From assembly GCA_903927505.1 (NCBI GenBank), contig CAIYNF010000128.1:39636-103635 (forward strand): a stretch of DNA of 64,000 nucleotides, read 5' to 3'. The position numbers were made by a program, and so were the translations under genes. Positions 24,237-55,877 of this stretch are shown here, piece by piece (positions within the stretch are counted from its first letter, which is position 1; each line of letters starts with the position of its first letter). The notes beneath the pieces were generated by a model that saw only the letters and a list, made by a program, of their open reading frames with translations, searched no databases and was not told the origin of the DNA. Origin of the DNA: an uncultured Bacteroidota bacterium. GTDB taxonomy: Bacteria > Bacteroidota > Bacteroidia > UKL13-3.

Positions 24237-25627
24237 TAATATTTGAAAATCCTTTTTCTTAAAATCTGCCCGTCGGCGCCACACTCAATAATATAAAGGC
24301 CTTGCGGCAAATGCGACAAGTCTATTTCACTTGTATTTGCATCAACTGGCACATTTATTTGAATATCTCCCATGGTGTTCAAAAGGGTAATTGCATCTAA
24401 ATGAATTCCATCATAATTCACTTTTATTTTTCCTGAACATGGGTTTGGGTAAACAGTAATTTCTGCTTGTGGTTTTGTAATTTCTGTTGATCCAAGCAAT
24501 GCACTATCAATTTCAAAAACGAAAATTCCTGCCGTTAAATCACTTGCAATAATATGTTTGCTGGGTAGGTAGGGATAAATTCCCCAACAACCTTTAAACC
24601 CTCCATAAACCTCAGGCGAAACAGGATGTGTATCAAACCAAGCTGCCTTAATTGGATTGCTAGGATCTGTAATATCATAAACTACTACTCCGTCATGGTA
24701 TGCAGAAACGTATGCAAAATTACCATACCAATACGCATTGTGAGATGTTGTGTAGGTATTGCTGTTAAACTGACTAATAAACTTTGGATTACTAAGACTA
24801 TTGATGTCAAAAATCTTAATATCTAATCCTGCGTTCTCATCGGTAAACATAATTTTCTTACCAGTTTTGTCTAGCCAACTGCTGTGGTTGTAACCTTGAT
24901 CTGGATAGGAGTTAATACTACCAATTAATCGTTGATCTGCAAGATTTCTCAAATCAAAAATATACAAACCTGCTTCCCCACAACTTAAATAAGCCGTATC
25001 GTTTTTTGCAAACATTTCATGCACCAAGTTAAAAAGTGGAAATCCTCCCGACTTAGTAGGAACAGTTAATTCAGCCAAAAATGTAGGATGAACTGGGTCA
25101 CTGATAGAAAGAATATCCATGGCAGAAAATCCTCCTGGTTTTGAATTGCTGCTCATGTACAAGCGCGAACTAACAGAATCAATAAAAATGGTATGCGTAT
25201 AAGTTCCAAGGGCATTGCTATGGTATACTTCAGGAAATGAATCGGGGAGGTATTGCAAATCAAAAATCTGTAACGCACCTATGCCACTTCCTTGATCAGA
25301 AACACAATAAGCATAATGTTGGTAGGTTTCATAATCGCGATTTTTTGCAAAAATAGAAGCACCTGCAACCGCTGCTATTCTTTTCATGTTCACCGCATCC
25401 GTAATATCAAAAACATAAATACTATCCGTGCCTCCACAAATAATATACTCTCTGTTCTTAATAGGATCGTAATAACCCGTCAGGTCGTTCCAAATATCTG
25501 TACCGTCTACTTTGGGCAAAGAAGGATTGTTATAAGAGGCCAATTTGCGCATGCGGTATGCATCTTGCGCGTTTACGCTTAGATGCAAAAGCATAAAAAA
25601 CAAGAAGGTATAGAGAAACTTTTTCAA
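24236..25627 (-). CDS. secreted beta-propeller-like protein with a T9SS CTD; paralog 1
   Basis: The ORF track extends to 25729 and overlaps the upstream gene by 98 nt. An in-frame TTG at 25627 gives the textbook signal peptide MKKFLYTFLFFMLLHLSVNAQ. C-terminal VYPNPCSGKIKV...ILRKRIFKY matches a T9SS CTD. Confidence 0.62.
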   Translation of the reverse strand: MKKFLYTFLFFMLLHLSVNAQDAYRMRKLASYNNPSLPKVDGTDIWNDLTGYYDPIKNREYIICGGTDSIYVFDITDAVNMKRIAAVAGASIFAKNRDYETYQHYAYCVSDQGSGIGALQIFDLQYLPDSFPEVYHSNALGTYTHTIFIDSVSSRLYMSSNSKPGGFSAMDILSISDPVHPTFLAELTVPTKSGGFPLFNLVHEMFAKNDTAYLSCGEAGLYIFDLRNLADQRLIGSINSYPDQGYNHSSWLDKTGKKIMFTDENAGLDIKIFDINSLSNPKFISQFNSNTYTTSHNAYWYGNFAYVSAYHDGVVVYDITDPSNPIKAAWFDTHPVSPEVYGGFKGCWGIYPYLPSKHIIASDLTAGIFVFEIDSALLGSTEITKPQAEITVYPNPCSGKIKVNYDGIHLDAITLLNTMGDIQINVPVDANTSEIDLSHLPQGLYIIECGADGQILRKRIFKY

Positions 25628-25631
25628 TGTA

Positions 25632-26747
25632 TTAGCCTTTAAAATTGTACCGGTAAGTATAATGTATTTTTGTAGTCTTTGCGCCCAAAGCTTCAAACAA
25701 GCTGTGCATTTTGGGGTTAAAATCGCCAATCCACGACAATTCTGCTTGGGTATATTGCGGATGATTCTTTTTCATTTCTTCATAAAACTTAATAATCATT
25801 CCTGTTTCCAAACCCAAATTTTGATAGGCAGGAATAACACCAAAAACAATTCCTCGAACCCTGTTAACACCACCAAAATGGAGTAAGTACAAGAATTTTA
25901 ATTTCGACCAAATATTCATTTTTCCATTCAAATGTTTGAAAATTTGGTTTACATCCAATACATTTACTATAAAACCTGCGGGCTCATTATTTGCATAGGC
26001 AAACCAAATAGCTTCTTCAATCATAATTGGTTTTAGTGAAATTAATGTGCTCTCTATTTTATCTTTTGTAATGGCTATAAAATCTGCTCGGCTCGCCCAA
26101 GCCTTATTATAAATATGTATAAAATCTGATGCGTATTTGTCCAATTCTTTCATCTTAAAATGCTCGAACCTGTAGGCAGGATTGGCCAATACACGGGAAG
26201 AGAGTTTAAAAAAACGTTCCGACTTAAACTCATCAATGCCAATTTCTGAGGTGGTTTGTTCAAAGTTTTTTACAAAGCCATATGACTCAAACAAATGCTG
26301 GTAATAGGAGAAATTGAAATTTTCTTGGTAGGAAGGATTTTTAAATCCGGAAACCAATAAGCCCCAATATTTATCTTTTTCTCCAAAATTGATTGGGCCA
26401 TCCATATAGCTGCAATGATTGGTTCGAAGCCAATCTTCAGCTGTATTAAATAATAGATGGGCGGCATTGACCTTGTCTACGCACTCAAAAAAACCCATTC
26501 CACCTGATAGTTTGCCGGATTCATTTTTATAAAATGCAGCAATTCTGCCAATAGTTTTTTCTTCTGAAATTAATAACCAACGCTTGGCATCGCCCAAATC
26601 ATAAAATTTATTTTGATTTGGATCAAAAACAGTTTCAATATCTTTATCCAATGGGCAAATCCAATCTGGATGATTGGCATACAATCGCTTTGGAAAATCA
26701 ATGAATTCCTTTTGCTCTTTTTTACTAAATACTTCTTTGACTTGCAT
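25632..26747 (-). CDS. hypothetical protein, possibly a GNAT/FemAB-fold acyltransferase-like protein
   Basis: 371-aa cytoplasmic ORF. The family assignment rests on overall pattern only. Confidence 0.3.
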   Translation of the reverse strand: MQVKEVFSKKEQKEFIDFPKRLYANHPDWICPLDKDIETVFDPNQNKFYDLGDAKRWLLISEEKTIGRIAAFYKNESGKLSGGMGFFECVDKVNAAHLLFNTAEDWLRTNHCSYMDGPINFGEKDKYWGLLVSGFKNPSYQENFNFSYYQHLFESYGFVKNFEQTTSEIGIDEFKSERFFKLSSRVLANPAYRFEHFKMKELDKYASDFIHIYNKAWASRADFIAITKDKIESTLISLKPIMIEEAIWFAYANNEPAGFIVNVLDVNQIFKHLNGKMNIWSKLKFLYLLHFGGVNRVRGIVFGVIPAYQNLGLETGMIIKFYEEMKKNHPQYTQAELSWIGDFNPKMHSLFEALGAKTTKIHYTYRYNFKG

Positions 26748-43547: not shown

Positions 43548-44528
43548 ATGGTTTCCAAACGTCTTGTTATTTGGCAGTCCATATTGTTTGCCCTTCTGGG
43601 TATTGTACTCTTGTATTTTAGTTTTAGAAAAACAGATTTTAATGCACTATGGCAAGTTATTCAACAAGGAAACCATTGGGTAATTTTACCCGTATTTTTT
43701 GTTTCAGTTTGGGTAATGGTGGCAAGAAGTTTGCGTTGGAAAATTCTCTATAAAGGGGCAAATGTACATGTTCCTTTTAATGTCTTATTTGCATCACTTG
43801 CAAGTGGCTATTTGGTTAATTTTGTAGTACCCCGCTTAGGTGAAATTACGCGTGCATTAATTGTAAAGCGCGCGCTTAATGTACCAGTAAATACAAGCCT
43901 AAGCACAATTTTGTTTGAGCGCATTACCGACCTTATTTGCTTGGCTATGCTCCTTGCACTTGCCTTTGGTTTTGAATTTATAAACCATGGTACTTTATTG
44001 GCTCATTTTACCCATGGCGTAAATCTACTCAGTGCTAACAAAATATTGCTATTCTTTGTGTTTGTTCTGTGTTTTGCTGCCTTCTATTTCTGGTTAAAAA
44101 AACGCAATGATAAAATAAGTACCTGGATCAAATCATTAATTGAAACAAGCATTCAACTCACGCAAATGAAAAATAAATGGCAATTTGTTTTTCATACCAG
44201 CAGCATTTGGATTGGCTTTTACTTAATGACCTACTTGTGGTTTTTTATGTTTGAAGATGCCGCCCAATTAAGTGCCTACGATGCCTTTCTGATTATGGCA
44301 TTAGGAGTGGTGGCGCGTACTTTGCCCATACAAGCGGGTTCTGCAGGGGCCTATCATTTTGTGGTAAGTCAAGCCTTAGCGCTACTTGGAATAAACCTAC
44401 TTACCGGCAATGCCTTGGCCATTGTTATCCATGGTTTTCAGACAATTTTAACGCTGCTATTTGGATTTTGCGCTTATCTTTGGCTACTTTATTATAACAA
44501 ACAAAATGCAGAAAAGATCCTTGTTTAG
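43548..44528 (+). CDS. lysylphosphatidylglycerol-synthase-TM-region-like (flippase-like, UPF0104) membrane protein
   Basis: 326-aa polytopic protein whose N-terminal pattern (…SLRWKILY…) resembles PF03706 proteins. Starts 2 nt after the previous stop. Confidence 0.5.
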   Translation: MVSKRLVIWQSILFALLGIVLLYFSFRKTDFNALWQVIQQGNHWVILPVFFVSVWVMVARSLRWKILYKGANVHVPFNVLFASLASGYLVNFVVPRLGEITRALIVKRALNVPVNTSLSTILFERITDLICLAMLLALAFGFEFINHGTLLAHFTHGVNLLSANKILLFFVFVLCFAAFYFWLKKRNDKISTWIKSLIETSIQLTQMKNKWQFVFHTSSIWIGFYLMTYLWFFMFEDAAQLSAYDAFLIMALGVVARTLPIQAGSAGAYHFVVSQALALLGINLLTGNALAIVIHGFQTILTLLFGFCAYLWLLYYNKQNAEKILV

Positions 44529-45699
44529 TGCCCATAAATGCTTCTTATTGTTTTTTTTAATTTTCGGTTCGAACCAATTATTTGCCCAAAATTTCCCGAA
44601 ATTAGGTAACGATACTTTACTGGATATTGCCAATTGGAATATTGAATGGTTTGGCGATGTAACCAATGGCCCAAGTGATGAAGCCACGCAATTTGCTAAT
44701 GTAAAAGCCTTGTTAGACAAAACAGAAATGGATGTTTTTGCATTGGAGGAAATTAGTGAAGCAAGTGCTTACGCAAATTTGAGCACGCAATTAGCCGCTA
44801 AATACGATGCCTATATTTCTTCTTTTTCGCAAACGCAAAAAACAGGCATCTATTGGCGTAAAAGCATGTTCTCTGTAATACCAAATTTATCATACAACCT
44901 AAACGTAACTTCTGGCGACAATTATTTTTATGCCTCTCGTCCGCCTTTACAAGTTTGCTTACAAACCATTGGGGGAACCAAAATAGATACATTGTATTTC
45001 TTGGTAATTCACCTCAAAGCATACGCAGATGTAGATTCTTACAATAGAAGGATAGGCGCCTCCGCAGCTTTAAAAACTTATATAGAAGGCACCCTCACAG
45101 GCAAGAAAGTAATTGTGTTAGGTGATTGGAACGATCAATTAAGCGCCTCTATTTATAATTCAGCGGAGAGTCCTTTTAAAAATTTACTCACAGCCAATTA
45201 TACTTTCCCAAGTAAAGAATTAGAAGATGCTGGCAAATCATCTTATGCTTTTAAAAATAGCATGATAGACCACCAATTAATTAGCCACGCACTCGATTCA
45301 TTTTACTACAAAGGTTCGGCAAAAGTATTCAGTGATGCGCCAACTTATTGCAGCGGTTTTAGCAACAATACCTCCGATCATTTTCCAATTTACTCTTGCT
45401 TTAACTGGAAAAAATTAACAACAAGAATTATTCCTGAAGGAGTAGAGGAGGAGTTGAATAAAATAAACATAACAATTGCGCCAAACCCAACAAATACAAG
45501 CATTACAGTTCAATGCGACAAGCAAATAGATGTAGTAAAAATTATAGACTTACAAGGCAGAATAGTAATTGAAAAAGCAAATAATTTAAGCAAAGAATGG
45601 CAAGCGCAAATAGACTTAAGCAATTTAGAAGCGGGTATTTATTTTGTGCAAATTGAGAGCCAAGGAAAACAATTGTGCAGGCAAATTGTGAAGCAATAA
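44506..45699 (+). CDS. endonuclease/exonuclease/phosphatase (EEP) family protein with a T9SS C-terminal sorting domain
   Basis: Signal peptide MQKRSLFSAHKCFLLFFLIFGSNQLFAQ. EEP motifs NWNIEWFG...FALEE...SDHFPIY. The C-terminal ~80 aa match the T9SS CTD pattern. Confidence 0.68.
   Translation: MQKRSLFSAHKCFLLFFLIFGSNQLFAQNFPKLGNDTLLDIANWNIEWFGDVTNGPSDEATQFANVKALLDKTEMDVFALEEISEASAYANLSTQLAAKYDAYISSFSQTQKTGIYWRKSMFSVIPNLSYNLNVTSGDNYFYASRPPLQVCLQTIGGTKIDTLYFLVIHLKAYADVDSYNRRIGASAALKTYIEGTLTGKKVIVLGDWNDQLSASIYNSAESPFKNLLTANYTFPSKELEDAGKSSYAFKNSMIDHQLISHALDSFYYKGSAKVFSDAPTYCSGFSNNTSDHFPIYSCFNWKKLTTRIIPEGVEEELNKINITIAPNPTNTSITVQCDKQIDVVKIIDLQGRIVIEKANNLSKEWQAQIDLSNLEAGIYFVQIESQGKQLCRQIVKQ
44566..44575. 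repeat. GGTTCGAACC palindromic decamer (exact)
   Basis: Coding: it encodes FGSNQ in the signal peptide of the EEP T9SS cargo gene. Confidence 0.9.
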
Positions 45700-45772: not shown

Positions 45773-46486
45773 TCAATCTAATGTCCTGCTATGATCCATC
45801 ACATATTTCCAGATCTCTAATACATCTTCAATATTTATATCATAGGGTTTATAAATAGGGTTGTTTGAAACCAAAGCAATTTTTCTGCTTTTGGCTATAT
45901 CGTTGTAAACGCGTTTAAACACAATGCCATCTTCTTTGGTAAGAATAACATAGCAAAGGCCATCTTTTAAGCTACTCCAATCTTCTACATACTCGCAGGT
46001 AACATAGGTTTTATCTTGAATAGGAAGCATAGAATCTCCGCTAATTTGAAAGCTGCGGTACTTCTTGCGCTTGTCTAAGAAAGGCAAACTAAATTGCGGT
46101 AATTCAGAAATAAATTGAATATCTGTATAGCCAGCAGTATAACCGGCACGCGCCTTTTCAGAAACCAATTCTATATTATCTATATTGTCTGAATTGGTAG
46201 TTGTAGCAATAATACGCAGGTATTTCCCTTTGATATAATCTTCTAAACCGCGCTCTAGCTCGCCCACTTTTGATTCTGGCAAACGTGTTAAATCAATGCG
46301 CAATAAGGTGTCTAAACTAATTCTAAAATAATCAGAAATACGCACCGCCATATCAATTGGTGGCGAGGCAATATTGTTCTCATAGCTGTTCAAAACAGAG
46401 CGCTTCGACTCTAAAGCCATAGCCATTTCTTCCTGACTAAAGTTTTTTCGTTTCCTTAGAAACTTAATGTTGGTTGAGAGGTACAT
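45773..46486 (-). CDS. LexA-like SOS-type repressor (XRE-family HTH plus S24 self-cleaving peptidase domain)
   Basis: N-terminal HTH (LRKRKNFSQEEMAMAL). C-terminal S24 region with SGDSM, which contains the catalytic Ser and has a Lys downstream. Confidence 0.72.
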   Translation of the reverse strand: MYLSTNIKFLRKRKNFSQEEMAMALESKRSVLNSYENNIASPPIDMAVRISDYFRISLDTLLRIDLTRLPESKVGELERGLEDYIKGKYLRIIATTTNSDNIDNIELVSEKARAGYTAGYTDIQFISELPQFSLPFLDKRKKYRSFQISGDSMLPIQDKTYVTCEYVEDWSSLKDGLCYVILTKEDGIVFKRVYNDIAKSRKIALVSNNPIYKPYDINIEDVLEIWKYVMDHSRTLD

Positions 46487-46587
46487 ATTGTTTATTGTTA
46501 GCTACATAAAGAAACAAACGCAATTGAATTGGCTGTTTCTAAATGCCTCCGCAAGATAAACAATGTTAGTTAGATTGTCAAGTATGT

Positions 46588-46602
46588 GTTAATCATATTA
46601 AC
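46588..46602. promoter_or_regulatory. candidate operator GTTAATcatATTAAC (GTTAAT-N3-ATTAAC) upstream of the repressor gene
   Basis: Perfect 6+3+6 inverted repeat about 100 nt upstream of the repressor ATG. It has the same arms as the sites in front of the dinB-like and dnaE2-like genes. Confidence 0.5.
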
Positions 46603-46670
46603 AATAAAAACACCCTTATTCCAACAACAAATCAGTATTGGTGGGCATTTAAAGGCGTAAAAAATATTTT

Positions 46671-47681
46671 CTAGAATTCTAAAATAGCACGTTCCATTAT
46701 ATTATCTATTCCATTTACGGCTTGGCTCGTGCTAAATTGTACTGGAATTTCTGGTGGCACACCATCTTCCCAATTATTGCCATTGATATCTAAGGTGCGG
46801 GTAATAGAAAACCTATAAGTCCAACCATTGGGCAATTGTCCGCCGTTAGGCATACCCATGCCACCTCCAGTTGTATCTCCTAATAAAACCATTGAGTCTA
46901 TTGCTTTGGTAGCAGTACTGGTAAAACTTCCTGCGCTATAGGTGCCTCTATCTGTTAGCACAATTACCTTTTTTAAATACAAGGTTCCTTTACTGGGTTC
47001 TATAAAACAATCTTCAGCAGTGGTAAAATCATCAAGCCCAGCACCACTTTTAATAGAGGTATGGTAGAGCAATGTTTTGGTGCTAACAAAATGACTTAAT
47101 ATTTTAAAGATATCGCTGGCAGCCCCGCCACCATTGGCACGCAAATCCAAAATAATGCCTTTGGTATCTTTGTACCTATCCAACATAAAATTCATTTGGT
47201 TATCGGTAACAGTACCTGTAAACGCTTTTAAACGAATGTAACCAATAGCGGCATGGTCCTTTACAAAATCATGCATAAACGGACCTGTGGTATAATAATT
47301 TGAGCTCAAATAATGCTCTTTCACAACGCGTTCATCAATGCCTTTTGGACCTAATAAACTCACATCAAAATGTGAAATATTAAATGAAGAAATGAGATTA
47401 ACATGTCCATCCCTGAGCTCATTGAGCATTTGCGCCAATACTGTAAACAACTGATCATTGCTCATAGAATTAGAAACTTGTGCCGCGTATTTGGCTTTCA
47501 CACTGGTCCAATCAATATGCTTGTAGCTCATAAATGCATATTTTTTATCACATTCATTCCAGAGGTATTCAAAGTTTTTTTGCGGCGTTTTATCTACAGA
47601 AGATTCTTCCATAAATGCCTTTTCACAAGAGCTCAAGAAAAAGGGAAAAGACAAGAAAAGGGTATAAAATATTTTTCTCAT
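46671..47681 (-). CDS. S41-family (C-terminal processing/tricorn-core-like) peptidase, lipoprotein
   Basis: Lipoprotein signal FFLSSC. DLRANGGG and Ser-rich GTYSAGSF motifs. Confidence 0.65.
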   Translation of the reverse strand: MRKIFYTLFLSFPFFLSSCEKAFMEESSVDKTPQKNFEYLWNECDKKYAFMSYKHIDWTSVKAKYAAQVSNSMSNDQLFTVLAQMLNELRDGHVNLISSFNISHFDVSLLGPKGIDERVVKEHYLSSNYYTTGPFMHDFVKDHAAIGYIRLKAFTGTVTDNQMNFMLDRYKDTKGIILDLRANGGGAASDIFKILSHFVSTKTLLYHTSIKSGAGLDDFTTAEDCFIEPSKGTLYLKKVIVLTDRGTYSAGSFTSTATKAIDSMVLLGDTTGGGMGMPNGGQLPNGWTYRFSITRTLDINGNNWEDGVPPEIPVQFSTSQAVNGIDNIMERAILEF

Positions 47682-47689
47682 GTGAGGTT

Positions 47690-48547
47690 CTAATTTGTTT
47701 TAAACAATAAAGCCAATTGAAAATAATGATGTGCCATTTGAAAGCGATCAAAATCGCCAGCAGTGCGGTAAGCTTCCCAATTATAACCCAAGCGCAGGAT
47801 ATTGCCATTGGGGTAATACAAATCGTAATGAAGCGCAGAACTCATCCTAAAACCAGAAAAAGCATGGTATTGATACCCATCGGTGAGCCGTGTTTGGTTG
47901 CTAATGGTACTGGCATTGGTGTAGGCATACCCATTTCTATAAGTATTGTTCATGAGCGGCAAATTCAATTGGTATGAAAGAATGCGCGTTTTAGGCTTTA
48001 AGTGGTAAGAAATAAGTAAAAAGCGCCCTTGCTTCTCTTTTTTTCTGCTTATATCGTAGCTCATTTTGGCCGAACCAAACAAGGTATTGAACATCTCTAA
48101 ACCAAAGGCATTGTTTTGTAAACCGGGGTTCATACGCATATTGCCTGTGATATCTAGACTACCACCCAATTTAAAATTCCATTTTTCTCCCAGCTTGAGC
48201 GGAACTTGGTACAAGCGGGTATAAGCCAAATAAGGCGTGTTTACGGTGCTGCCAAATGTTTGTTGATCGGCAACAAGTTTAAAGGTAGCAGATGAAAAGC
48301 CAAAATACATTTTTGTTTCTCTGCGTGCCGAGCTCCTTAAGAAAGCAAGGTCAAAACGCATAGCCGATGTTGAATAGGGCAGTGCCGAGGTGGCAAAATC
48401 TGTAAAGTATGCATTGTCGAACCCAGCGCCAACTTGAATAAATTTGGTTTTGGAAGTGCTGGCAACATTGGTTTGCGTAGCTATTGGCGCCTGGCTATAA
48501 AGCAGGCAGGGCAACAAAGTACACAGGGTAAAAAAGATGTTTCTCAT
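47690..48547 (-). CDS. hypothetical outer-membrane beta-barrel-like protein
   Basis: Signal peptide MRNIFFTLCTLLPCLLYSQA. Alternating aromatic/hydrophilic strands, C-terminal ...LLFKTN. Confidence 0.4.
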   Translation of the reverse strand: MRNIFFTLCTLLPCLLYSQAPIATQTNVASTSKTKFIQVGAGFDNAYFTDFATSALPYSTSAMRFDLAFLRSSARRETKMYFGFSSATFKLVADQQTFGSTVNTPYLAYTRLYQVPLKLGEKWNFKLGGSLDITGNMRMNPGLQNNAFGLEMFNTLFGSAKMSYDISRKKEKQGRFLLISYHLKPKTRILSYQLNLPLMNNTYRNGYAYTNASTISNQTRLTDGYQYHAFSGFRMSSALHYDLYYPNGNILRLGYNWEAYRTAGDFDRFQMAHHYFQLALLFKTN

Positions 48548-48714
48548 CTACTTATAAATTATTGGTTCAATAATATACAAAAAAGAAAAACTTCCCCCTT
48601 TACAAGAACAGATTTTGCAAAAAATGCAAAAATTACATCGCCTTCATTGTCTGCATGCTGCAAAAAAAACTTGCCATTCTATTTTTATTTGGTTAATATA
48701 AATGACCAATAAAA

Positions 48715-48729
48715 GTTAATTAAATTAAC
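48715..48729. promoter_or_regulatory. candidate operator GTTAATtaaATTAAC immediately upstream of the dinB-like ATG
   Basis: 15-bp palindrome inside a 24-nt block (AATAAAAGTTAATTAAATTAACAA) that is identical to the block upstream of the dnaE2-like gene. Confidence 0.55.
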
Positions 48730-48731
48730 AA

Positions 48732-49877
48732 ATGCAATCACTTATCGCACATATGGATCTCGATAGCTTTTTTGTTTCGGTGGAGCGCCTAGAAAATTCA
48801 GCCCTCAAGGGGAAGCCTGTCATTATTGGCGGTTTCTCCGACCGGGGTGTTGTGGCCAGTTGCAGTTACGAGGCGCGCTCCTTTGGGGTACATGCGGCCA
48901 TGCCCACCAAACTAGCGCGGCGCTTATGTCCGCAAGCAATTTGGATACGTGGCGATATGGACAAATACAGCAAACTCTCACATACCGTAACAGAAATTAT
49001 TGAAGAAGCGGCGCCCTTGGTAGAAAAGGCGTCTATAGATGAACATTACTTAGATGTAACGGGCTTAGACCGCTTTTTTGGCACCTACAAATGGATGCAT
49101 GAATTGCGGCAACGCATTATCAACGAATCTGGTTTGCCCATTTCATTTGGTTTATCTGTAAACAAAACCGTTTCTAAAATTGCCACCGGAGAAGCCAAGC
49201 CCAATGGCGAAAAAGAAGTGCAGGAAGCTTTTGTAAAACCTTTTCTGTTTCCGCTTTCCATTAAAAAAATACCCGGGATTGGAGATAAATCATACCATAC
49301 CCTGCGCGATATGGGCATTGTATACATTGAAACCTTGGCCAATATGCCCATTGAATTGCTGGGAAAAGTAATGGGCGAAAACGGCAAAGTAATTTGGGAG
49401 AAAGCCAATGGGATCGACAATAGACCTGTGGAGCCTTACCACGAACAAAAGTCAATTGGTTCGGAACGAACCTTTGAAACAGATACCACAGACATGAAAT
49501 TACTCCAACATACCTTGGCAAAAATGGTACAAGATATTTGCTTTGATATGCGCAAACAAAACAAGCTCTGCGCCACAGTAACCGTTAAAATTCGCTACTC
49601 AGATTTTCAAACGCATACCATGCAAAAAAGCATTCCGTATACGGCTTACGACCATGTAATCTTACAAGCCGCAAAAGAATTGCTGGCTAAAGTGTACGAC
49701 CGCCGCTTGCTCATTCGGCTCATTGGTGTAAAGCTAAGCAAGCTGGTGTATGGCGCCCAACAAATAGATCTTTTTGAAGACAGCGAAGAATTAGTAAAAC
49801 TCTACCAAGCCTTAGACCAAATTAAATTTTGGTACGGGAAAAAAGCGGTAGGAAAGGGGATAGATCACCGTAAATAA
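48732..49877 (+). CDS. dinB: Y-family DNA polymerase IV (DinB-like; catalytic residues present)
   Basis: MDLDSFFVSVE and SIDEHYLD motifs, which contain the catalytic D/DE residues. Length of 381 aa is typical. Confidence 0.85.
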   Translation: MQSLIAHMDLDSFFVSVERLENSALKGKPVIIGGFSDRGVVASCSYEARSFGVHAAMPTKLARRLCPQAIWIRGDMDKYSKLSHTVTEIIEEAAPLVEKASIDEHYLDVTGLDRFFGTYKWMHELRQRIINESGLPISFGLSVNKTVSKIATGEAKPNGEKEVQEAFVKPFLFPLSIKKIPGIGDKSYHTLRDMGIVYIETLANMPIELLGKVMGENGKVIWEKANGIDNRPVEPYHEQKSIGSERTFETDTTDMKLLQHTLAKMVQDICFDMRKQNKLCATVTVKIRYSDFQTHTMQKSIPYTAYDHVILQAAKELLAKVYDRRLLIRLIGVKLSKLVYGAQQIDLFEDSEELVKLYQALDQIKFWYGKKAVGKGIDHRK

Positions 49878-49945
49878 ATGCATGATAATGTCTAAAGTTT
49901 ATCTTGCTTGCATTTAAAGCCCCTGCAGCAAATGGCATAACTATT

Positions 49946-51070
49946 TTACTCTAAATCCTTATTCAATTTGGTGAGTCGTATTTTCATAATATTATTCTCG
50001 TCATGAAAACTACTTGCAAAAATCCAGGTATCTGGGCCGGCAGGTCCAAAACTTTGATTAACTCCATTTTCATATGGAATTGGATATTTTTTTAGCACTT
50101 TATAATCCTTGCTCAAATTACAAACATATCCTCTATTTAGATTATTTTGAGAAGAACTAAAAACAGTATAACCATTCAGCTGGTTAATGAAAATTTGGTT
50201 AGCATAAATACCTAAATATTTGGTGGTATTATCTTCCAAAACAAGACTCATTCCGGGTAGTGCGTATAAGTTAGAATCCAATAATTTGAAATAAAAACCA
50301 CCTGCATATTGTGATTCGAGAAGTTCTTCATATAGAGTGGATCCTCCCCATTGATATATTTTCCGGTAGCTCTTTGAAACACTTACATTAATTACATTAA
50401 ATCCCCAAACAAAAAGTTTTTTATTACAATAACCAATAGCAGTTACACAATCTGGTCCTCCACCCATTTGTAAAGTATCAACCACCCATAAAGGATTAGT
50501 TATATCTTGCCCGTAGGCAGCAAGAACAAATTTAGTGATACCACCTATTTTACCATTTGCAGCAAATAAAATTGTTTGATCCGGCCCAAGACATGTTTCG
50601 GAATTAACATAGTATGAATTATCAAAACCTATGTTTTTTTCAATGTTCACATTAATTTTTACCAATTCCAATGATGAATTTATTTCATATAGTGCTTCTC
50701 CCATTGTAAAATAAAACTTTTCTCCTCTTACAAAGGCACCAGGATTAAAATATGAATCACTTTCAAAAATTGCTGAATCCAACAGGTTTAAATCTTGGTC
50801 GTATTTTAGTAAATAAAGTTTTTTTGAATTGTCATATCTTCCAAAAATGACAAAACTTTGGTCAGGAAGAGTTATAAATTCATTTGGATATAAAATTAAA
50901 CCAACATAAGGTAAAACGATTGATTTAATTGGGTCTGGAGGGTTGTTAAATAAAGTTGGCCTTTTGCAGGAAATATTGATAATGATTGTAAGGCAAATTA
51001 TTAGTGCCAATTTTTTAAAATAAAAAAATTGCATAATAATGGATTTTGATTTGTCTAAATAATATTTCAT
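49946..51070 (-). CDS. hypothetical lipoprotein
   Basis: A hydrophobic leader ends in ...IINISC (a lipobox-like Cys). Tyr/Asn-rich, beta-propeller-like composition. Confidence 0.4.
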   Translation of the reverse strand: MKYYLDKSKSIIMQFFYFKKLALIICLTIIINISCKRPTLFNNPPDPIKSIVLPYVGLILYPNEFITLPDQSFVIFGRYDNSKKLYLLKYDQDLNLLDSAIFESDSYFNPGAFVRGEKFYFTMGEALYEINSSLELVKINVNIEKNIGFDNSYYVNSETCLGPDQTILFAANGKIGGITKFVLAAYGQDITNPLWVVDTLQMGGGPDCVTAIGYCNKKLFVWGFNVINVSVSKSYRKIYQWGGSTLYEELLESQYAGGFYFKLLDSNLYALPGMSLVLEDNTTKYLGIYANQIFINQLNGYTVFSSSQNNLNRGYVCNLSKDYKVLKKYPIPYENGVNQSFGPAGPDTWIFASSFHDENNIMKIRLTKLNKDLE

Positions 51071-51110
51071 TCTTGTTTTTTTTAGTAAAATATTTCAAAC
51101 ATATTTTTAT

Positions 51111-52673
51111 TTATAATTTATTTATTTTAAAACTAATTTGATTGATTGGATTAATATCAAGACCAAATAAATCAGATCCAATAATATTCGCTTCTGCGCA
51201 TTTAATTACAAAAGTATTATTAAACACCCCGTTTACATTAATTCTATCAATTTTACTAACGCAACCAATAACATTTACTGTTTTTGAATTAGATGGTAAG
51301 TTTGGACTTAAGTCTATTTTAACACCAAAATGTAATTTATTAATTTTGGTATATTTATTATTAGCAGCTATAAAAGTATTTCCAATTAGATTTATTAATA
51401 ATTGATCATTGGTTTCATAATGGCAATAAATAGAATACCCCAAATTGGCTTCAAACCATGACTTTGAAATGTTTATTACATCTGTAATTGGCAGATCTGG
51501 ATTTTCGGGTGGTGGTGGTGGTGCAGAATTTCTCGGATAAATTCTCAACGCTCCAGTATTTGGGTCGCCATCTACCGGAACATATTTAGTAGTTTCAGAA
51601 TTAGTTAAATACCATCCATTTACTTCAAAAGTGCAATTCTCAATATGTAACATGGAGCCCTTGGAATATTGCAATCCCCAATTCCTACACCAAACAATTC
51701 TAGATTCAAATATAGAAATTTGGTTTGCAGAATAAGACGCAGAGCTATCTAATATTATTCCGTTGAAACACGCTTGACTTGGGTTGTAAAACGTGTGTTC
51801 CTGAGGATCTGGATCAGAAGTATCAGTCCATTCATTTTCTCCGCCAATAACGCAATTGTTTATATTGGATGTAAGTACTCCTTTAAAATTTATTGCAGTT
51901 TGGCATGACCTAACAAAAACTCGTTCAATGTTTAGGAAAGCACAATTTTCGGCATAAATTCCTATAAATTCATATCCTGGTCCATAATAAAATGGTGGCG
52001 CTATTTCTAAGTTATTATGATAATACGAACCCTCGATTAAAGGACTTCCGGCAATTCCGAAATCTTTTAAATTTGTGTATGGGTTAAATACTTCAATTAA
52101 ATTTCTTGTTGTAATAATTGATGAAGCAATTGGTTCTTCCTCGGAGGGGAAATAAGATGTGTTTCCCACAAATATAGTTGATAGCATTCCACTTCCTACC
52201 AGGTTTACTCTTAATGTTTCTCCCCTCCATTTTATTTGAGCTGAAGAGTTATCTGCTTTTATAGAAATAGTATCAATAAGGTAAAATCCTGCTGGGAAAA
52301 ATAAGCCACCAGAACTTTCAGAAATAGTTTGATTGGCAGCATTTGGATATGCATTAGAATAATATTTCTGCATAGAATCTATTGCATTTTGGATATTTGT
52401 TGTATCATTTGTGGGCGTTAAATTGTCTGGAAAAGCATCGCCTTTCACTCCAAACCACTTTACGTTAATCAATCCATCAAATATTCGTTTTAATCTTGAG
52501 CCATTAAAAGTAACTATTACAATTCCAGTATTATCAGCACTTACTGTATCGTGCAAATCATATCGCCAAAATCCTTCTTGCCCAATATCTGTAGTATAAT
52601 ATAAATCAGATAATAAAGGTAAAAAAGTGGGGTCGTTTCTTAAGTATGAAATTGAATAATTAAATGTTGCCAT
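51111..52673 (-). CDS. right-handed parallel beta-helix (pectate-lyase superfamily, PF12708-like) protein
   Basis: INVKWFGVKGDA...NIQNAIDS resembles the N-terminal signature of Pectate_lyase_3 / tailspike-like proteins. Asn/Gly/Ile-rich repeats. Confidence 0.45.
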   Translation of the reverse strand: MATFNYSISYLRNDPTFLPLLSDLYYTTDIGQEGFWRYDLHDTVSADNTGIVIVTFNGSRLKRIFDGLINVKWFGVKGDAFPDNLTPTNDTTNIQNAIDSMQKYYSNAYPNAANQTISESSGGLFFPAGFYLIDTISIKADNSSAQIKWRGETLRVNLVGSGMLSTIFVGNTSYFPSEEEPIASSIITTRNLIEVFNPYTNLKDFGIAGSPLIEGSYYHNNLEIAPPFYYGPGYEFIGIYAENCAFLNIERVFVRSCQTAINFKGVLTSNINNCVIGGENEWTDTSDPDPQEHTFYNPSQACFNGIILDSSASYSANQISIFESRIVWCRNWGLQYSKGSMLHIENCTFEVNGWYLTNSETTKYVPVDGDPNTGALRIYPRNSAPPPPPENPDLPITDVINISKSWFEANLGYSIYCHYETNDQLLINLIGNTFIAANNKYTKINKLHFGVKIDLSPNLPSNSKTVNVIGCVSKIDRINVNGVFNNTFVIKCAEANIIGSDLFGLDINPINQISFKINKL

Positions 52674-52842
52674 GAAGCAGTATTGTTTAATATTAACACA
52701 ATCAAATATAGTGCATTATGTTCATTTTTTGACGTACAATCATAAAACATATTTCTGATTCATTATGAGGACAAAAGTGCATCAAAAACAAAAAAATATT
52801 GGATGTTAAATTTATTTTTGTTATTTTAATTAGCTAATAAAA

Positions 52843-52857
52843 GTTAATTAAATTAAC
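52843..52857. promoter_or_regulatory. candidate operator GTTAATtaaATTAAC upstream of the dnaE2-like gene
   Basis: Identical to the dinB site, including 9 nt of 5' flank. It sits 9 nt before the TTG start. Confidence 0.55.
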
Positions 52858-52865
52858 AATATGCT

Positions 52866-55800
52866 TTGGAACACACACACACCTATTATAGCCTGCGTTA
52901 TGGCACTTTTTCTGTAGAAGAATTGGTTTTGCAAGCCAAGCAACTTGGATTACAATCACTGGGTATTACAGATATCAATTGCTCCACGGGTATTTTTGAA
53001 TTTGTAAAATGCTGCGAAAAACATGGGATCAAACCAATTGCTGGCATTGAATTTAGAGAAGAAAACAGGGTGCTTTTTACTGCTGTAGCTAAGAATACCG
53101 CTGGTATTGCAGAAATAAATAAACTCTTATCTGATTATAATTTATACGGAAAACCCTACGCCCCGCAACTCAAACAACTGCAAAATAGCTATGTGGTTTA
53201 CCCTTTAGCCAATTACCCAAGCGTTTTGCTCGACCACGAATTGATTGGGGTTCGCTTTTCTGAATTTGCTAAACTGGCACGAAAAGACATGAGTAATACC
53301 AAACATAAACTCATTCTACAACAACCCGTAACTTTTCTCAATGCCGCTAGTTACGCGCTACACATGCACCTGCGTGCCATAGACAATAATATATTGCTAA
53401 GTAGGCTCGATACCAACAACAATGCTGCCGCGCCAGATGAATACCTCTTGTCTGAACCCGATATTATTCATACCTGCCGCTACCACCATTATATCTTAAG
53501 CAATACCATTGCCTTCATGGACCGTTGTAGTGTGCACTTCGATTTTAAAACACATAAAAATAAAAAAGTATATTCTTCTTCGGCCTACGACGATAAGCAA
53601 CTCCTCGAAACCCTTGCTTATGATGGCCTGGCATACCGTTATGGCGCCAACAATACCGTGGCCAAACAAAGGGTGCAAAAAGAATTAGACATCATAGACA
53701 AACTTGGCTTCTCTGCCTATTTTCTTATTACCTGGGACATTATCAGGTATTCTATGTCGAGAGGATTTTACCATGTAGGCAGAGGAAGCGGTGCCAATAG
53801 TGTGGTGGCTTATTGCTTGCGCATCACAGATGTTGACCCCATTGAATTGAACCTGTATTTTGAACGTTTTTTAAACCCTAAAAGAACCTCTCCACCCGAT
53901 TTTGATATTGACTACAGCTGGAAAGAACGGCCGCAAGTACATGCCTATATCTTTAAGCGCTATGGGCGTGATCATACGGCATTGTTGGGCACCATCTCTA
54001 CTTTTAGAAGCAGCTCTATCTACCGTGAATTAGGCAAAGTATATGGCTTGCCCAAAAGAGAAATAGATATGCTCGCCGATTATCCAGAAAAAGCAGACCG
54101 CAATTCGCCCTTAATATCACAGATAATGAGCATAGGGGAGCAGTTGCAAGATTTTCCCAATCACCGTTCTATTCATGCAGGTGGTGTGCTTATTTCTGAA
54201 GAACCCATTTACCAATATTCTGCCCTTGATTTACCTCCCGTGGGTTTACCTACCGTGCAATGGGATATGCATATTTCGGAAGATATTGGCTTTGAAAAAT
54301 TTGACATTTTGTCGCAACGCGGAATAGGCCATATCAAAGATGCGGCTGAACTGGTTTGGCAAAACAAACGCATTAAAGTAGATGTGCATGAAGTGCAAAA
54401 ATTTAAAACAGACCCGCGCATCAAACAAGAACTCAAAAACGCAAACAGCATCGGTTGTTTTTATATTGAAAGTCCTGCCATGCGCGGCCTATTGAAAAAA
54501 CTCAAGTGCGACACCTACATTCATCTAGTTGCAGCCAGCTCTATTATTCGTCCGGGCGTGGCAAAATCTGGTATGATGAAAGCATATATCCATAATTTTC
54601 ACCACCAAAAAGAAGTAAAATATTTACACCCTGTAATGAAAGAACAGCTGGAAGAAACTTTTGGCGTAATGGTCTTTCAAGAAGATGTACTGAAAGTTTG
54701 TCATCACTTTGCTGGCTTAGACCTTGCCGATGCAGATGTATTGCGCAGGGCCATGAGCGGCAAATACCGTTCTAAAGCAGAGTTTCAAAGAATCATGGAT
54801 AAGTTCTTTCTCAATTGCAAAGAAAAAGGTCATTCAGATGAATTGAGCAAAGAGGTGTGGCGACAAATGGAAAGCTTTGCGGGTTACTCTTTTAACAAAG
54901 CACACTCTGCTTCTTTTGCAGTAGAGAGCTTCCAAAGTTTGTTTCTCAAAACCTATTATCCAATGGAGTTTATGGTGGCCGTTATCAATAATTTTGGAGG
55001 CTTTTACCGCACTTGGGTATATGTAAATGAGCTAATAAAAACAGGGGCAAAGGTGCTGTTACCCTGCGTTAACGAATCAGAACTGCTTACCAATATCAAA
55101 GGCGAAAATGTATACCTTGGCTTTACCCATATTGAAAGCATTGAACACAAAACAATTGAAGCTATTTTAGAAGAACGCGCACTAAATGGCCCCTTTTCAA
55201 GCTTTGTAGATTTTACCAACAGGGTACCCATTAGTGTTACGCAAATCAAAATTCTCATTAAAGTTGGGGCCTTTAGGTTTTGTGGTGTAGGAAAGAAAAA
55301 CTTAATGTGGCAAGCCTATACCAACCTGGGAGAACGCGCCCAACACGCAGAAATGGCCTATGTAAATAAAAGCAGTAAAAATAGCATCGAACCAAAGGCA
55401 ATGCAACACTTGGTACAAGAAACCATGCAGTCTATTTTGTTTACAAAAGCCCCTAAAGAATTTAACTTGCCCGCACTGGTACACAACAGCATAGAAGATG
55501 CCTACGATGAAATTGAACTGCTGGGATTTCCTATAAGCATCAATGATTTTGACTTGCTACAAACAAACTATAGGGGAGATGTAATGGCCCAAGATATCAG
55601 CAAATATTTGGGTCGAACCGTTAAAATGCTTGGAAATTATGTAACAACTAAATCTATTAAAACAATACGTGGCGACTATATGGCTTTTGGTACTTTTTAC
55701 GATGTGCATACCCAATTCTTTGACACCACACACTTTGCGCAAAGCCTCGCTAAATACCCATTTGCAGGCAGAGGCGTATACCTAATTGAAGGAAAAGTAG

Positions 55801-55877
55801 TAGAAGAATTTGGCTTTTATACCTTAGAAGTGAGCAAAATGGCCAAGTTAGCTACCAAACCCGATCCGCGCTATTGA
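52866..55877 (+). CDS. dnaE2: error-prone DNA polymerase III alpha-like subunit (DnaE2/ImuC-like)
   Basis: 1003 aa. Has an N-terminal PHP domain (EHTHTYYSLRYG), the Pol IIIalpha core, and a length and context (with dinB and a LexA-like repressor) typical of DnaE2. TTG start. Confidence 0.78.
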   Translation: MEHTHTYYSLRYGTFSVEELVLQAKQLGLQSLGITDINCSTGIFEFVKCCEKHGIKPIAGIEFREENRVLFTAVAKNTAGIAEINKLLSDYNLYGKPYAPQLKQLQNSYVVYPLANYPSVLLDHELIGVRFSEFAKLARKDMSNTKHKLILQQPVTFLNAASYALHMHLRAIDNNILLSRLDTNNNAAAPDEYLLSEPDIIHTCRYHHYILSNTIAFMDRCSVHFDFKTHKNKKVYSSSAYDDKQLLETLAYDGLAYRYGANNTVAKQRVQKELDIIDKLGFSAYFLITWDIIRYSMSRGFYHVGRGSGANSVVAYCLRITDVDPIELNLYFERFLNPKRTSPPDFDIDYSWKERPQVHAYIFKRYGRDHTALLGTISTFRSSSIYRELGKVYGLPKREIDMLADYPEKADRNSPLISQIMSIGEQLQDFPNHRSIHAGGVLISEEPIYQYSALDLPPVGLPTVQWDMHISEDIGFEKFDILSQRGIGHIKDAAELVWQNKRIKVDVHEVQKFKTDPRIKQELKNANSIGCFYIESPAMRGLLKKLKCDTYIHLVAASSIIRPGVAKSGMMKAYIHNFHHQKEVKYLHPVMKEQLEETFGVMVFQEDVLKVCHHFAGLDLADADVLRRAMSGKYRSKAEFQRIMDKFFLNCKEKGHSDELSKEVWRQMESFAGYSFNKAHSASFAVESFQSLFLKTYYPMEFMVAVINNFGGFYRTWVYVNELIKTGAKVLLPCVNESELLTNIKGENVYLGFTHIESIEHKTIEAILEERALNGPFSSFVDFTNRVPISVTQIKILIKVGAFRFCGVGKKNLMWQAYTNLGERAQHAEMAYVNKSSKNSIEPKAMQHLVQETMQSILFTKAPKEFNLPALVHNSIEDAYDEIELLGFPISINDFDLLQTNYRGDVMAQDISKYLGRTVKMLGNYVTTKSIKTIRGDYMAFGTFYDVHTQFFDTTHFAQSLAKYPFAGRGVYLIEGKVVEEFGFYTLEVSKMAKLATKPDPRY

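Follow-up and report, generated by a model that had tools for sequence, protein, structure and literature searches.

This analysis concerns three genes in a 64-kb stretch of chromosome, here called the window, from an uncultured freshwater Bacteroidota bacterium (contig CAIYNF010000128.1). The genes encode a repressor, a Y-family DNA polymerase, and a Pol III-alpha-type DNA polymerase, and each is preceded by the same perfect palindrome. An earlier note on this DNA, made from the sequence alone, had proposed that they form a damage-inducible regulon driven by a LexA-like repressor.

Genes and palindromes at the locus

The repressor gene lies on the minus strand at positions 45773-46486 of the window. 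Its product of 237 residues, a candidate LexA-type repressor of non-canonical form, consists of an N-terminal helix-turn-helix (HTH) domain of the HTH_3/XRE type, a linker, and a C-terminal S24 autopeptidase domain. The gene called dinB here is found on the plus strand at 48732-49877. It encodes a translesion polymerase of 381 residues with the domains IMS and IMS_C, of the DinB or putative Bacteroidetes PolY2 type. Further along the same strand, at 52866-55877, is a gene for a second Pol III-alpha-type polymerase of 1003 residues, called dnaE2-like (Pfam domains PHP, DNA_pol3_alpha, finger, and HHH_6). A check of the open reading frames (ORFs) and Pfam searches returned the same three genes and domains as the earlier note.

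The palindrome GTTAATNNNATTAAC, or GTTAAT-N3-ATTAAC, has three exact matches in the window, and these sit 5' of the genes for the HTH_3 and S24 repressor, the Y-family polymerase, and the Pol III-alpha (DnaE2-like) polymerase. The site at 46588-46602 reads GTTAATCATATTAAC, while those at 48715-48729 and 52843-52857 both read GTTAATTAAATTAAC. In 100 dinucleotide-preserving shuffles of the window there were no matches. The claim that one perfect inverted repeat precedes all three genes is thus borne out.

Searches with looser motifs are less informative. When up to two mismatches are allowed, 11 matches are found in the window against 10 expected, and the core TTAA-N5-TTAA gives 11 against 9.5 expected. 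Since both results are at chance level, the signal consists of the three perfect sites and their positions, and loose motifs are unusable for finding further members of the regulon in the window. Two of the matches with two mismatches, at 48692-48706 and 52820-52834, each lie exactly 23 bp 5' of a perfect site. Because of this spacing, the promoters of dinB and of the dnaE2-like gene are taken to carry tandem sites.

At the repressor gene, the operator (46588-46602) is a single site, which reads GTTAATATGATTAAC on the gene strand. It lies about 100 nucleotides upstream of the start codon and 5-6 nucleotides upstream of a conserved TTGACA. At dinB, the proximal operator (48715-48729) ends 2 nucleotides before the ATG, and the distal and weaker one (48692-48706, GTTAATATAAATGAC) lies 23 bp from it, centre to centre. 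At the dnaE2-like gene, the proximal operator (52843-52857) ends 3 nucleotides before a conserved ATG (52861) and 8 nucleotides before the usable start codon, a TTG (52866). A perfect TAnnTTTG box (TATTTTTG, 52813-52820) overlaps its distal operator (52820-52834, GTTATTTTAATTAGC) by one base, the first G of the operator being the final base of the box. The earlier description of sites lying right at the start codons is therefore correct for the proximal sites of the two polymerase genes, but not for the distant site of the repressor gene.

The regions upstream of the two polymerase genes are related to each other. The segment at 52789-52859 (plus strand) is a 71-nucleotide direct repeat of 48661-48731 with 75% identity, and the last 24 nucleotides of the repeat are identical. 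The 24-nucleotide block that the earlier note had seen in both regions is real, and forms the core of this longer repeat. The length of the repeat indicates that a whole module of promoter and operators was duplicated.

Conservation in related genomes

Relatives of the repressor were collected by scanning one genome per species. At least 593 of the 600 listed matches encode such a relative, and the best 80 loci were fetched with flanks of 10 kb. In nearly all of these loci with enough flank, the repressor gene is divergent from a dinB-dnaE2 pair. The two polymerase genes adjoin in most of the 80 loci; in the window they are split by an insertion. Since the three genes occur together in nearly all loci, the cassette that they form is ancient and tightly linked.

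The closest relatives are nine genomes (L001-L008 and L070) with repressors of 85-97% identity. They contribute 147 kb of sequence and are freshwater metagenome-assembled genomes (MAGs). In NCBI, the nearest species representatives are labelled inconsistently, as Bacteroidetes bacterium, Bacteroidia bacterium, “Chitinophaga pinensis” MAGs, and Sphingobacteriales bacterium. With at most one mismatch, GTTAAYNNNATTAAC occurs at 28 sites in the nine relatives, where 3.4 are expected, and 26 of the 28 lie no more than 200 bp upstream of one of the three cassette genes. Conservation of the motif upstream of orthologous genes, which the earlier note had suggested looking for, is therefore found.

The positions of the sites are conserved as well. 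In all nine close relatives, the proximal dinB site ends 0-5 nucleotides before the start codon. In most of them (L001, L002, L003, L007, L008, and L070), a second site lies 8 bp further upstream, or 23 bp from centre to centre. Such tandem sites occupy fixed positions, at about -18 and -41, upstream of dinB, and also upstream of dnaE2 where that gene is separated. A dnaE2 gene that directly follows dinB (L001-L003 and L009) lacks sites of its own. In L005-L008, L070, and the window, where dnaE2 is separated or has a promoter to itself, a separate tandem pair precedes it.

More distant relatives have the same cassette with another palindrome. In a clade labelled Bacteroidales or Rikenellaceae (L010-L080; 52-59% identity), two well-conserved TGATTA-N5-TAATCA sites, 23 bp apart, overlap a TAnnTTTG box. 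They are found about 60 nucleotides upstream of the repressor gene, for instance at L012:9930-10000. In L009, whose repressor is 62% identical, TTGACA-N7-TGTCAA stands where relatives have GTTAAy-N3-ATTAAC (L009:9880-10000), and a TTGACA…TCA promoter-like block is kept downstream of it.

The predicted recognition helix of the repressor varies together with these sites. The helix KRSxxNSYEN pairs with GTTAA-type sites, including those of two distant members from metagenomes (47% and 56% identity). The helix KRStLSGYEN pairs with GATTA-type sites, and GRSaLNGYEH pairs with TTGACA-type sites. An operator and a predicted helix that change together, at a constant position in the cassette, are what is expected of a cognate repressor-operator pair. 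The comparative analysis thus supports the view that the shared palindrome acts as an operator.

Metagenomes were also scanned for the tandem pattern GTTA-N6-TTAAC-N8-GTTA-N6-TTAAC. The result is mostly noise; among the matches listed, 3 of 80 loci are the cassette (L096, L118, and L150). Tandem GTTAAy-N3-rTTAAC sites with 23-bp spacing also occur directly 5' of TetR-family genes in unrelated metagenomic contigs (L084:181-218, L115:3618-3655, L123:9543-9580, L133:1505-1542, L110:951-988, and L125:639-676). These look-alike palindromes suggest that an unrelated repressor family uses a similar operator.

The repressor

The Pfam matches of the repressor are HTH_3 (PF01381, E=3.7e-12) over residues 7-61 and Peptidase_S24 (PF00717, E=3.4e-9). 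The predicted self-cleavage site is A113-G114 (…KARAGYT…), and the predicted catalytic residues are S151 (GDSM) and K190 (VFKR). None of the four residues varies among 19 aligned homologues, which span 54-97% identity.

An AlphaFold (AF2) model of the protein has a mean predicted local distance difference test score (pLDDT) of 73.6 and a disordered linker. The modelled N-terminal domain is all-alpha, with five helices, and superposes on the HTH domains of SinR, CylR2, and ImmR at 0.9-1.5 Å. The modelled C-terminal domain is rich in beta structure and superposes on the C-terminal domains of LexA and lambda CI at 2.3-3.0 Å. The best full-length structural match of the model is the lambda-186 hybrid repressor.

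Repressors of this architecture are known from the phylum. Sanchez-Osuna et al. (NAR 2021; PMC8565304) described the “non-canonical LexA” of Bacteroidetes, which combines HTH_3 with S24 and is structurally CI-like. Its members fall into two clusters, binding either GGA-N5-TCC or CTAA-N5-TTAG. C-terminal domains for comparison were taken from Data S5 of that study, and the cluster was assigned by BLASTP identity. The C-terminal domain of the window protein is 49% identical (E=3e-49) to that of a validated regulator of the CTAA cluster, WP_025606010.1 of Pontibacter actiniarum. Identity is 52% to a protein of the CTAA cluster from Solitalea, and 36% (E=1e-22) to one of the GGA cluster from S. 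agarivorans. These comparisons support placing the repressor in the Bacteroidetes non-canonical LexA family, within the CTAA-type cluster.

Features of canonical LexA are absent from the protein, which matches neither PF01726 (LexA_DNA_bind) nor an NCBIfam LexA model. BLASTP finds no match at E<10 to the C-terminal domain of E. coli LexA, and lambda CI is likewise unmatched. The likeness to canonical LexA is limited to the fold of the C-terminal domain. The best NCBIfam match of the N-terminus is the phage protein RstR, under the cutoff. Pfam, the invariant Ala-Gly, Ser, and Lys residues, and the modelled fold thus agree with the earlier description of a phage-CI-like HTH-XRE and S24 repressor that is not a winged-helix LexA.

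Promoter-like blocks and the duplicated module

When ten orthologous regions upstream of the repressor gene are aligned, the only conserved segments are the operator and a promoter-like block. The flanks are divergent, and the regions vary in length. In the window, this putative promoter lies at 46551-46581 (minus strand) and has the form TTG(ACA)-N20-TATCTTGC. Written as TTGACA-N17-TAnnTTGC, it resembles the promoter type of Bacteroidota, which has TTG at -33 and TAnnTTTG at -7. The TTG, an internal CA, and the TAnnTTGC are invariant or nearly so in the ten genomes, with a leader of ~8 to ~65 nucleotides. Relative to the inferred promoter, the operator has its centre near -49, outside the core promoter, and this geometry is fixed in the ten genomes. 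A shared operator-to-(-33) geometry with the recA promoter of P. actiniarum was also considered, and was dropped because the operator there is ~14 nucleotides closer to the TAnnTTGC box.

The dnaE2-like module of the window is orthologous to that of L008, and the proximal dinB site differs among the relatives. The 24-nucleotide identity of the dinB and dnaE2-like sites in the window points to copying, or to gene conversion, between these modules. Such an event would have been recent, and would have proceeded from dnaE2 to dinB. Because each fragment of the split cassette has its own promoter-operator module, regulation should survive the split.

The two polymerases

The dinB product matches IMS (E=2.9e-45) and IMS_C (E=1.2e-29) in Pfam, and with a score of 300.7 it passes the cutoff of 256 of the NCBIfam model for DNA polymerase IV (NF002677). 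In an alignment to E. coli Pol IV and to PDB 7yll, the catalytic residues D8 and D10 (HMDLDSFF) and D103 and E104 (SIDE) are kept. The alignment bears out the claim that the Y-family polymerase is catalytically intact, as far as its predicted active site is concerned. The product is without ImuB-C and without a long C-terminal domain. Its C-terminal tail (…QQIDLFEDSEELVKLYQALDQIKFWYGKKAV…) carries QQIDLF, which resembles a clamp-binding motif (QxxLF).

The same tail contains a stretch, ALDQIKFWYGKK, with a weak match to the N-terminus of RecA. When the tail segment DSEELVKLYQALDQIKFWYGKKAV is compared with residues 4-27 of E. coli RecA, it scores 31, and shuffled sequences score 21.7 on average; with p ~0.04, the similarity is weak. 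As for imuA, the window has 48 ORFs of 180 or more residues, and a RecA/ImuA-type domain is found in none of them. The claim that no imuA-like gene is present thus holds within these 64 kb.

In the dnaE2-like product, the Asp residues of the palm are present (PDFDIDYS and KFDIL, in an alignment to a PDB sequence). The start of its gene is unusual. In all nine relatives, dnaE2 begins with ATG CTT TGG AAy (MLWN[IT]HTYYSLRYG). The window differs from all nine by 2 extra nucleotides in an (AC)6 tract at 52871-52882 (plus strand), which put the conserved ATG (52861) in another frame than the long ORF. The frame of this ATG stops after 19 codons. Consequently, the long ORF can only begin at the TTG at 52866. 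The frameshift may be an assembly error, a tolerated change of the N-terminus, or a slippage-prone switch of the polymerase. In the last case, the (AC)n tract could add slip-strand on/off control of a mutagenic polymerase.

Relation to known systems

For the non-canonical LexA family, binding was validated by electrophoretic mobility shift assays (EMSA) with dyad and spacer mutants, and the targets were induced by mitomycin C (PMC8565304). Genes for error-prone polymerases were the most strongly induced targets, and DinB was often encoded in an operon with a Pol III-alpha gene. The regulator gene itself was induced by mitomycin C in all three species tested. CTAA-type regulators control ~9 operons in Hymenobacteraceae, Sphingobacteriaceae, and Chitinophagaceae, and small regulons were reported for diverged regulators. 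Diverged dyads can be functional, for instance TTAC-N5-GTAA in Elizabethkingia. The window adds an uncultured freshwater lineage of Bacteroidota that was unsampled in that study, and the regulon seen so far in this lineage is the cassette.

One member of the family for comparison is WP_025606010.1 of P. actiniarum, for which EMSA demonstrated binding to CTAA-N5-TTAG and whose targets respond to mitomycin C. It shares with the window protein the HTH_3 and S24 domains, the Ala-Gly and Ser/Lys residues, the 4-N5-4 geometry of the dyad, and the same G…C flanks and T-A-A. In both cases, sites are found in the regulator's own promoter and 5' of translesion polymerase genes, with multiple sites per promoter. 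The recA operator of P. actiniarum is GCTAAAATAATTAGC (an oligonucleotide in Table S1 of PMC8565304). Its GCTAA-N5-TTAGC differs from the GTTAA-N5-TTAAC of the window (GTTAAtnnnaTTAAC) by one C-to-T change per half-site. On the other hand, dyad substitutions abolished binding by the P. actiniarum regulator, and a terminal helix of ~38 residues is missing in the window protein. The core TTAA-N5-TTAA is absent from both published motifs and from the diverged dyads of Table S10 of the same study. The TGATTA-N5-TAATCA motif of the Bacteroidales-labelled MAGs is not listed there either. Bacteroidales were reported to lack these regulators (PMC8565304), whereas the relatives among the matches listed here include MAGs with that label.

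A second comparison is WP_078407279.1 of Elizabethkingia anophelis (PMC8565304, Figure 8). By description, it is a paralogue that binds a diverged CTAA-type dyad as its cognate site. Its gene is divergent from an error-prone polymerase gene, both genes are induced there by mitomycin C, and the regulon is small and local. The dyad sequence is different (TTAC-N5-GTAA), and the site is 15 bp from the start codon of the regulator, compared with ~100 nucleotides in the window.

The pair of polymerases also has a precedent. Timinskas and Venclovas (NAR 2019; PMC6511836) described a putative Bacteroidetes mutasome that consists of an apparently active PolY2 and DnaE2, without ImuA or ImuB-C. In their description, with Cellulophaga algicola as an example, the tail of PolY2 has a motif resembling the N-terminus of RecA, to which RecA is presumed to bind. 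The window resembles this system in having an active-looking Y-family polymerase near a second Pol III-alpha, with no imuA or imuB-C, although the RecA-like motif in the tail is weak. It differs in having 3 kb of inserted antisense genes within the operon, and a duplicated promoter with operators that serves dnaE2 separately.

The ImuA-ImuB-DnaE2 (ImuC) system of Proteobacteria and Actinobacteria likewise combines a Y-family polymerase with a second Pol III-alpha under a LexA-type repressor, for damage-induced mutagenesis. That system, however, requires ImuA, and its ImuB is a catalytically dead protein with an ImuB-C domain. The Y-family enzyme of the window is predicted to be intact, and its repressor is not a winged-helix LexA.

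Finally, lambda CI (at OR1-OR2), HdiR, and UmuDAb share with the window repressor an all-alpha HTH domain joined to S24, tandem operators ~23-24 bp apart, and a presumed self-cleavage stimulated by RecA. Unlike lambda CI, the window regulator is chromosomal and would act on host polymerase genes. The two proteins have no detectable sequence similarity, and cooperativity in the window is suggested by the spacing of the sites.

The system as such was thus already described in Bacteroidetes between 2019 and 2021. What is new here is an operator variant with one changed base per half-site and a locally rearranged architecture. The locus extends a recent class of SOS regulators to an uncultured freshwater lineage of Bacteroidota, and reveals no new mechanism. 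It also provides a natural example of how a circuit may evolve, in which one base per half-site and residues of the recognition helix yield a private operator. Moreover, an operon was split by foreign genes, and duplication of the 71-nucleotide promoter-operator module would keep the error-prone polymerase under damage control. In a group where inducible mutagenesis, with its role in adaptation and in the evolution of resistance, has barely been studied, the locus supplies a defined pair of operator and repressor.

A probable damage-inducible mutagenesis cassette

The locus is very probably a DNA-damage-inducible mutagenesis cassette of the Bacteroidota type, under a non-canonical LexA. This reading draws on the three exact sites, the domains of the proteins, the 49%-identical validated homologue, the conservation of sites and cassette, the joint change of operator and recognition helix, and the modelled fold. 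Binding, RecA-dependent cleavage, induction by damage, cooperativity, promoter positions, and cooperation of the polymerases are attributed to the locus by analogy with the family. The structural elements of the regulon proposed in the earlier note are supported. That proposal had missed the published families (PMC8565304 and PMC6511836), the tandem sites, and the ancestral divergent cassette that was broken by insertions.

In this model, dimers of the repressor would occupy the 15-bp palindrome GTTAAy-N3-ATTAAC, with its core TTAA-N5-TTAA, in undamaged cells. At dinB and at the dnaE2-like gene, the two operators are separated by 23 bp, which amounts to about two turns of the helix and resembles the arrangement of lambda CI at OR1-OR2. 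They would cover the region from the -7 box and transcription start to the start codon. Two dimers, probably bound cooperatively, would block initiation or promoter escape at both polymerase genes. At the repressor gene, a single operator abutting the upstream edge of the -33 element would lead to weaker autoregulation. After DNA damage, filaments of RecA on single-stranded DNA would stimulate cleavage between Ala113 and Gly114 by Ser151 and Lys190. The cleaved repressor would leave the DNA, and the Y-family and DnaE2-like polymerases would be made. Both polymerases would then act together in translesion synthesis, with RecA in place of ImuA.

Several observations weigh against this reading. 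The published motif CTAA-N5-TTAG is absent at the window sites, all of which have T rather than C at the outer dyad position, and the distal operators of both polymerase genes carry 2 mismatches each. The repressor is without the ~38-residue terminal alpha-helix that is found in relatives of 275 residues and in the family description. A strict scan for TTG-N16-23-TAnnTTTG did not score the block at the repressor gene, and no convincing core promoter came up where one would be expected. The promoter positions are accordingly argued from conservation and not from the scan. The dnaE2-like product falls below all curated NCBIfam cutoffs. It scores 544 against a cutoff of 1002 with NF004226 (DnaE1-type) and 484 against 939 with NF004225 (error-prone), and the DnaE1-type model thus outscores the error-prone one. 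For this reason, the label “DnaE2-like” reflects context and length, not a curated model. Since the start of the gene is frameshifted, it may be poorly expressed in this genome, or not expressed. An operator centred at about -49 is unusual for a repressor and nearer to the positions of activators and UP-elements, so that negative autoregulation is not assured.

Alternative explanations

In a broader reading, the same repressor would act through the same operators as master regulator of an entire SOS regulon, with recA, uvr, ruv, ssb, and others among its targets, and the window sites would be only the visible part. The ~9 operons controlled by CTAA-type regulators of the published family would fit such a role (PMC8565304), and so would the small extent of the window, which in its 64 kb holds no other classical SOS gene. 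However, nearly all sites in the window and in the 147 kb of relatives belong to cassette genes, and gyrB, which lies in the window, has no operator match. Small regulons with diverged regulators have been reported (PMC8565304), and the tight linkage of the repressor gene to dinB-dnaE2 in nearly all of the best 80 loci suggests a dedicated module. Control of a full SOS regulon is thus possible, but rather unlikely. An improbable variant concerns only the site at the repressor promoter, whose effect would be positive or neutral, like that of lambda CI at PRM. The repressor would then maintain its own synthesis while shutting the polymerases off. The protein is CI-like, and its site ends 5-6 nucleotides upstream of the TTG(ACA), outside the core promoter and fixed in ten genomes. 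Yet a centre at -49 fits neither class I nor class II activator positions, the promoter itself is putative, and the sites of the “Bacteroidales” clade overlap the -7 box of the repressor gene. Mitomycin C induced the regulator gene in all three species of PMC8565304, which indicates negative autoregulation and favours repression at the repressor's own site. That site may mediate weak repression or, conceivably, a CI/PRM-like positive effect.

It is very unlikely that the palindromes are bound by another regulator, such as one of the TetR family, or that they are no operators at all and instead represent AT-rich promoter or structural elements or targets of insertion. The tandem pairs upstream of TetR-family genes in unrelated metagenomic contigs would agree with the former, and the cassette junctions, which look like insertion hot spots, with the latter. 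The locus has no TetR gene, though, and from clade to clade the palindrome changes with the recognition helix but keeps its place in the cassette. The sites are strongly conserved in position against variable flanks, and are one base per half-site away from the EMSA-validated operator of a 49%-identical homologue. Still less credible is an immunity repressor of the CI type from a prophage or mobile element, with the polymerases nearby by chance. HTH_3 with S24 is the classic architecture of phage repressors, RstR is the best (below-cutoff) NCBIfam match of the N-terminus, and inserted DNA of low GC content lies nearby. But the surrounding genes are housekeeping genes and genes for cargo of the type IX secretion system (T9SS), not phage genes. 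The same flanking genes, for an EEP nuclease and an M10-like peptidase, recur in relatives, and the linkage of the three genes is conserved in nearly all of the best 80 loci. A prophage or mobile-element origin was rejected on gene content and synteny.

The reading as a damage-inducible cassette can be taken further, in a generalization that we regard as tentative and less likely to hold than to fail. In this lineage and in many uncultured Bacteroidia lineages, the non-canonical LexA would serve as a switch dedicated to an inducible mutasome, a portable module of three genes that appears to be far more widespread than reported, and not as a global SOS regulator. Each version would have its private pair of operator and helix (GTTAA, GATTA, or TTGACA), with tandem operators as in lambda. 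The mutasome would tolerate inserted cargo because its promoter-operator unit is copied to each fragment.

Insertions and surrounding genes

Two insertions interrupt the cassette in the window. The one between the repressor gene and dinB (46671-48547, minus strand) contains an S41 peptidase (46671-47681) and a 285-residue protein with a signal peptide (47690-48547). This insertion of a peptidase and an exported protein was not found at this place in any of the relatives. The second, of ~3 kb, lies between dinB and the dnaE2-like gene (49946-52673, minus strand; GC fraction 0.31) and encodes a 374-residue lipoprotein-like protein and a 520-residue protein that belongs to no known family. It is common to the window and L008 only. 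Both insertions are antisense to dinB and dnaE2, their genes are unrelated to them, and they are not part of the system.

The earlier note had described the second insertion as a lipoprotein and a beta-helix protein, both secreted. A lipoprotein-like signal (…IINISC) is plausible for the protein of 374 residues. The 520-residue protein has no visible signal peptide, and permissive Pfam searches gave no support for a beta-helix, so that both “beta-helix” and “secreted” are unsupported for it.

Other relatives have different cargo at the same junctions: AbiEii toxin, Fib_succ_major, DUF6044, OmdA/DUF1801, DUF6922, Bro-N, and a T9SS propeller protein (L003:4460-9990, L005:2930-4541, L006:5500-8570, L007:4500-8595, and L008:4796-8639). 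Because this cargo is unrelated from one relative to another, the AT-rich intergenic and operator regions of the cassette look like hot spots for insertion.

The rest of the window is ordinary chromosome, with sufB, fbp, eno, carA, sodA, gyrB, sucC, queA, ispD, accC, and several genes for T9SS cargo, as is typical of Bacteroidota; no phage genes were found in it. Cargo proteins with a Por_Secre_tail (T9SS) are encoded at 11613-14234, 18045-19928, 22824-25729, and 44461-45699. They include a peptidyl-arginine deiminase of the Porphyromonas type and an Exo_endo_phos nuclease/phosphatase. The gene for the latter is next to the repressor gene and convergent with it, an arrangement conserved in all close relatives. 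In L002, an operator-like site with 1 mismatch lies 56 bp upstream of the Exo_endo_phos gene, at a place where the window has none.

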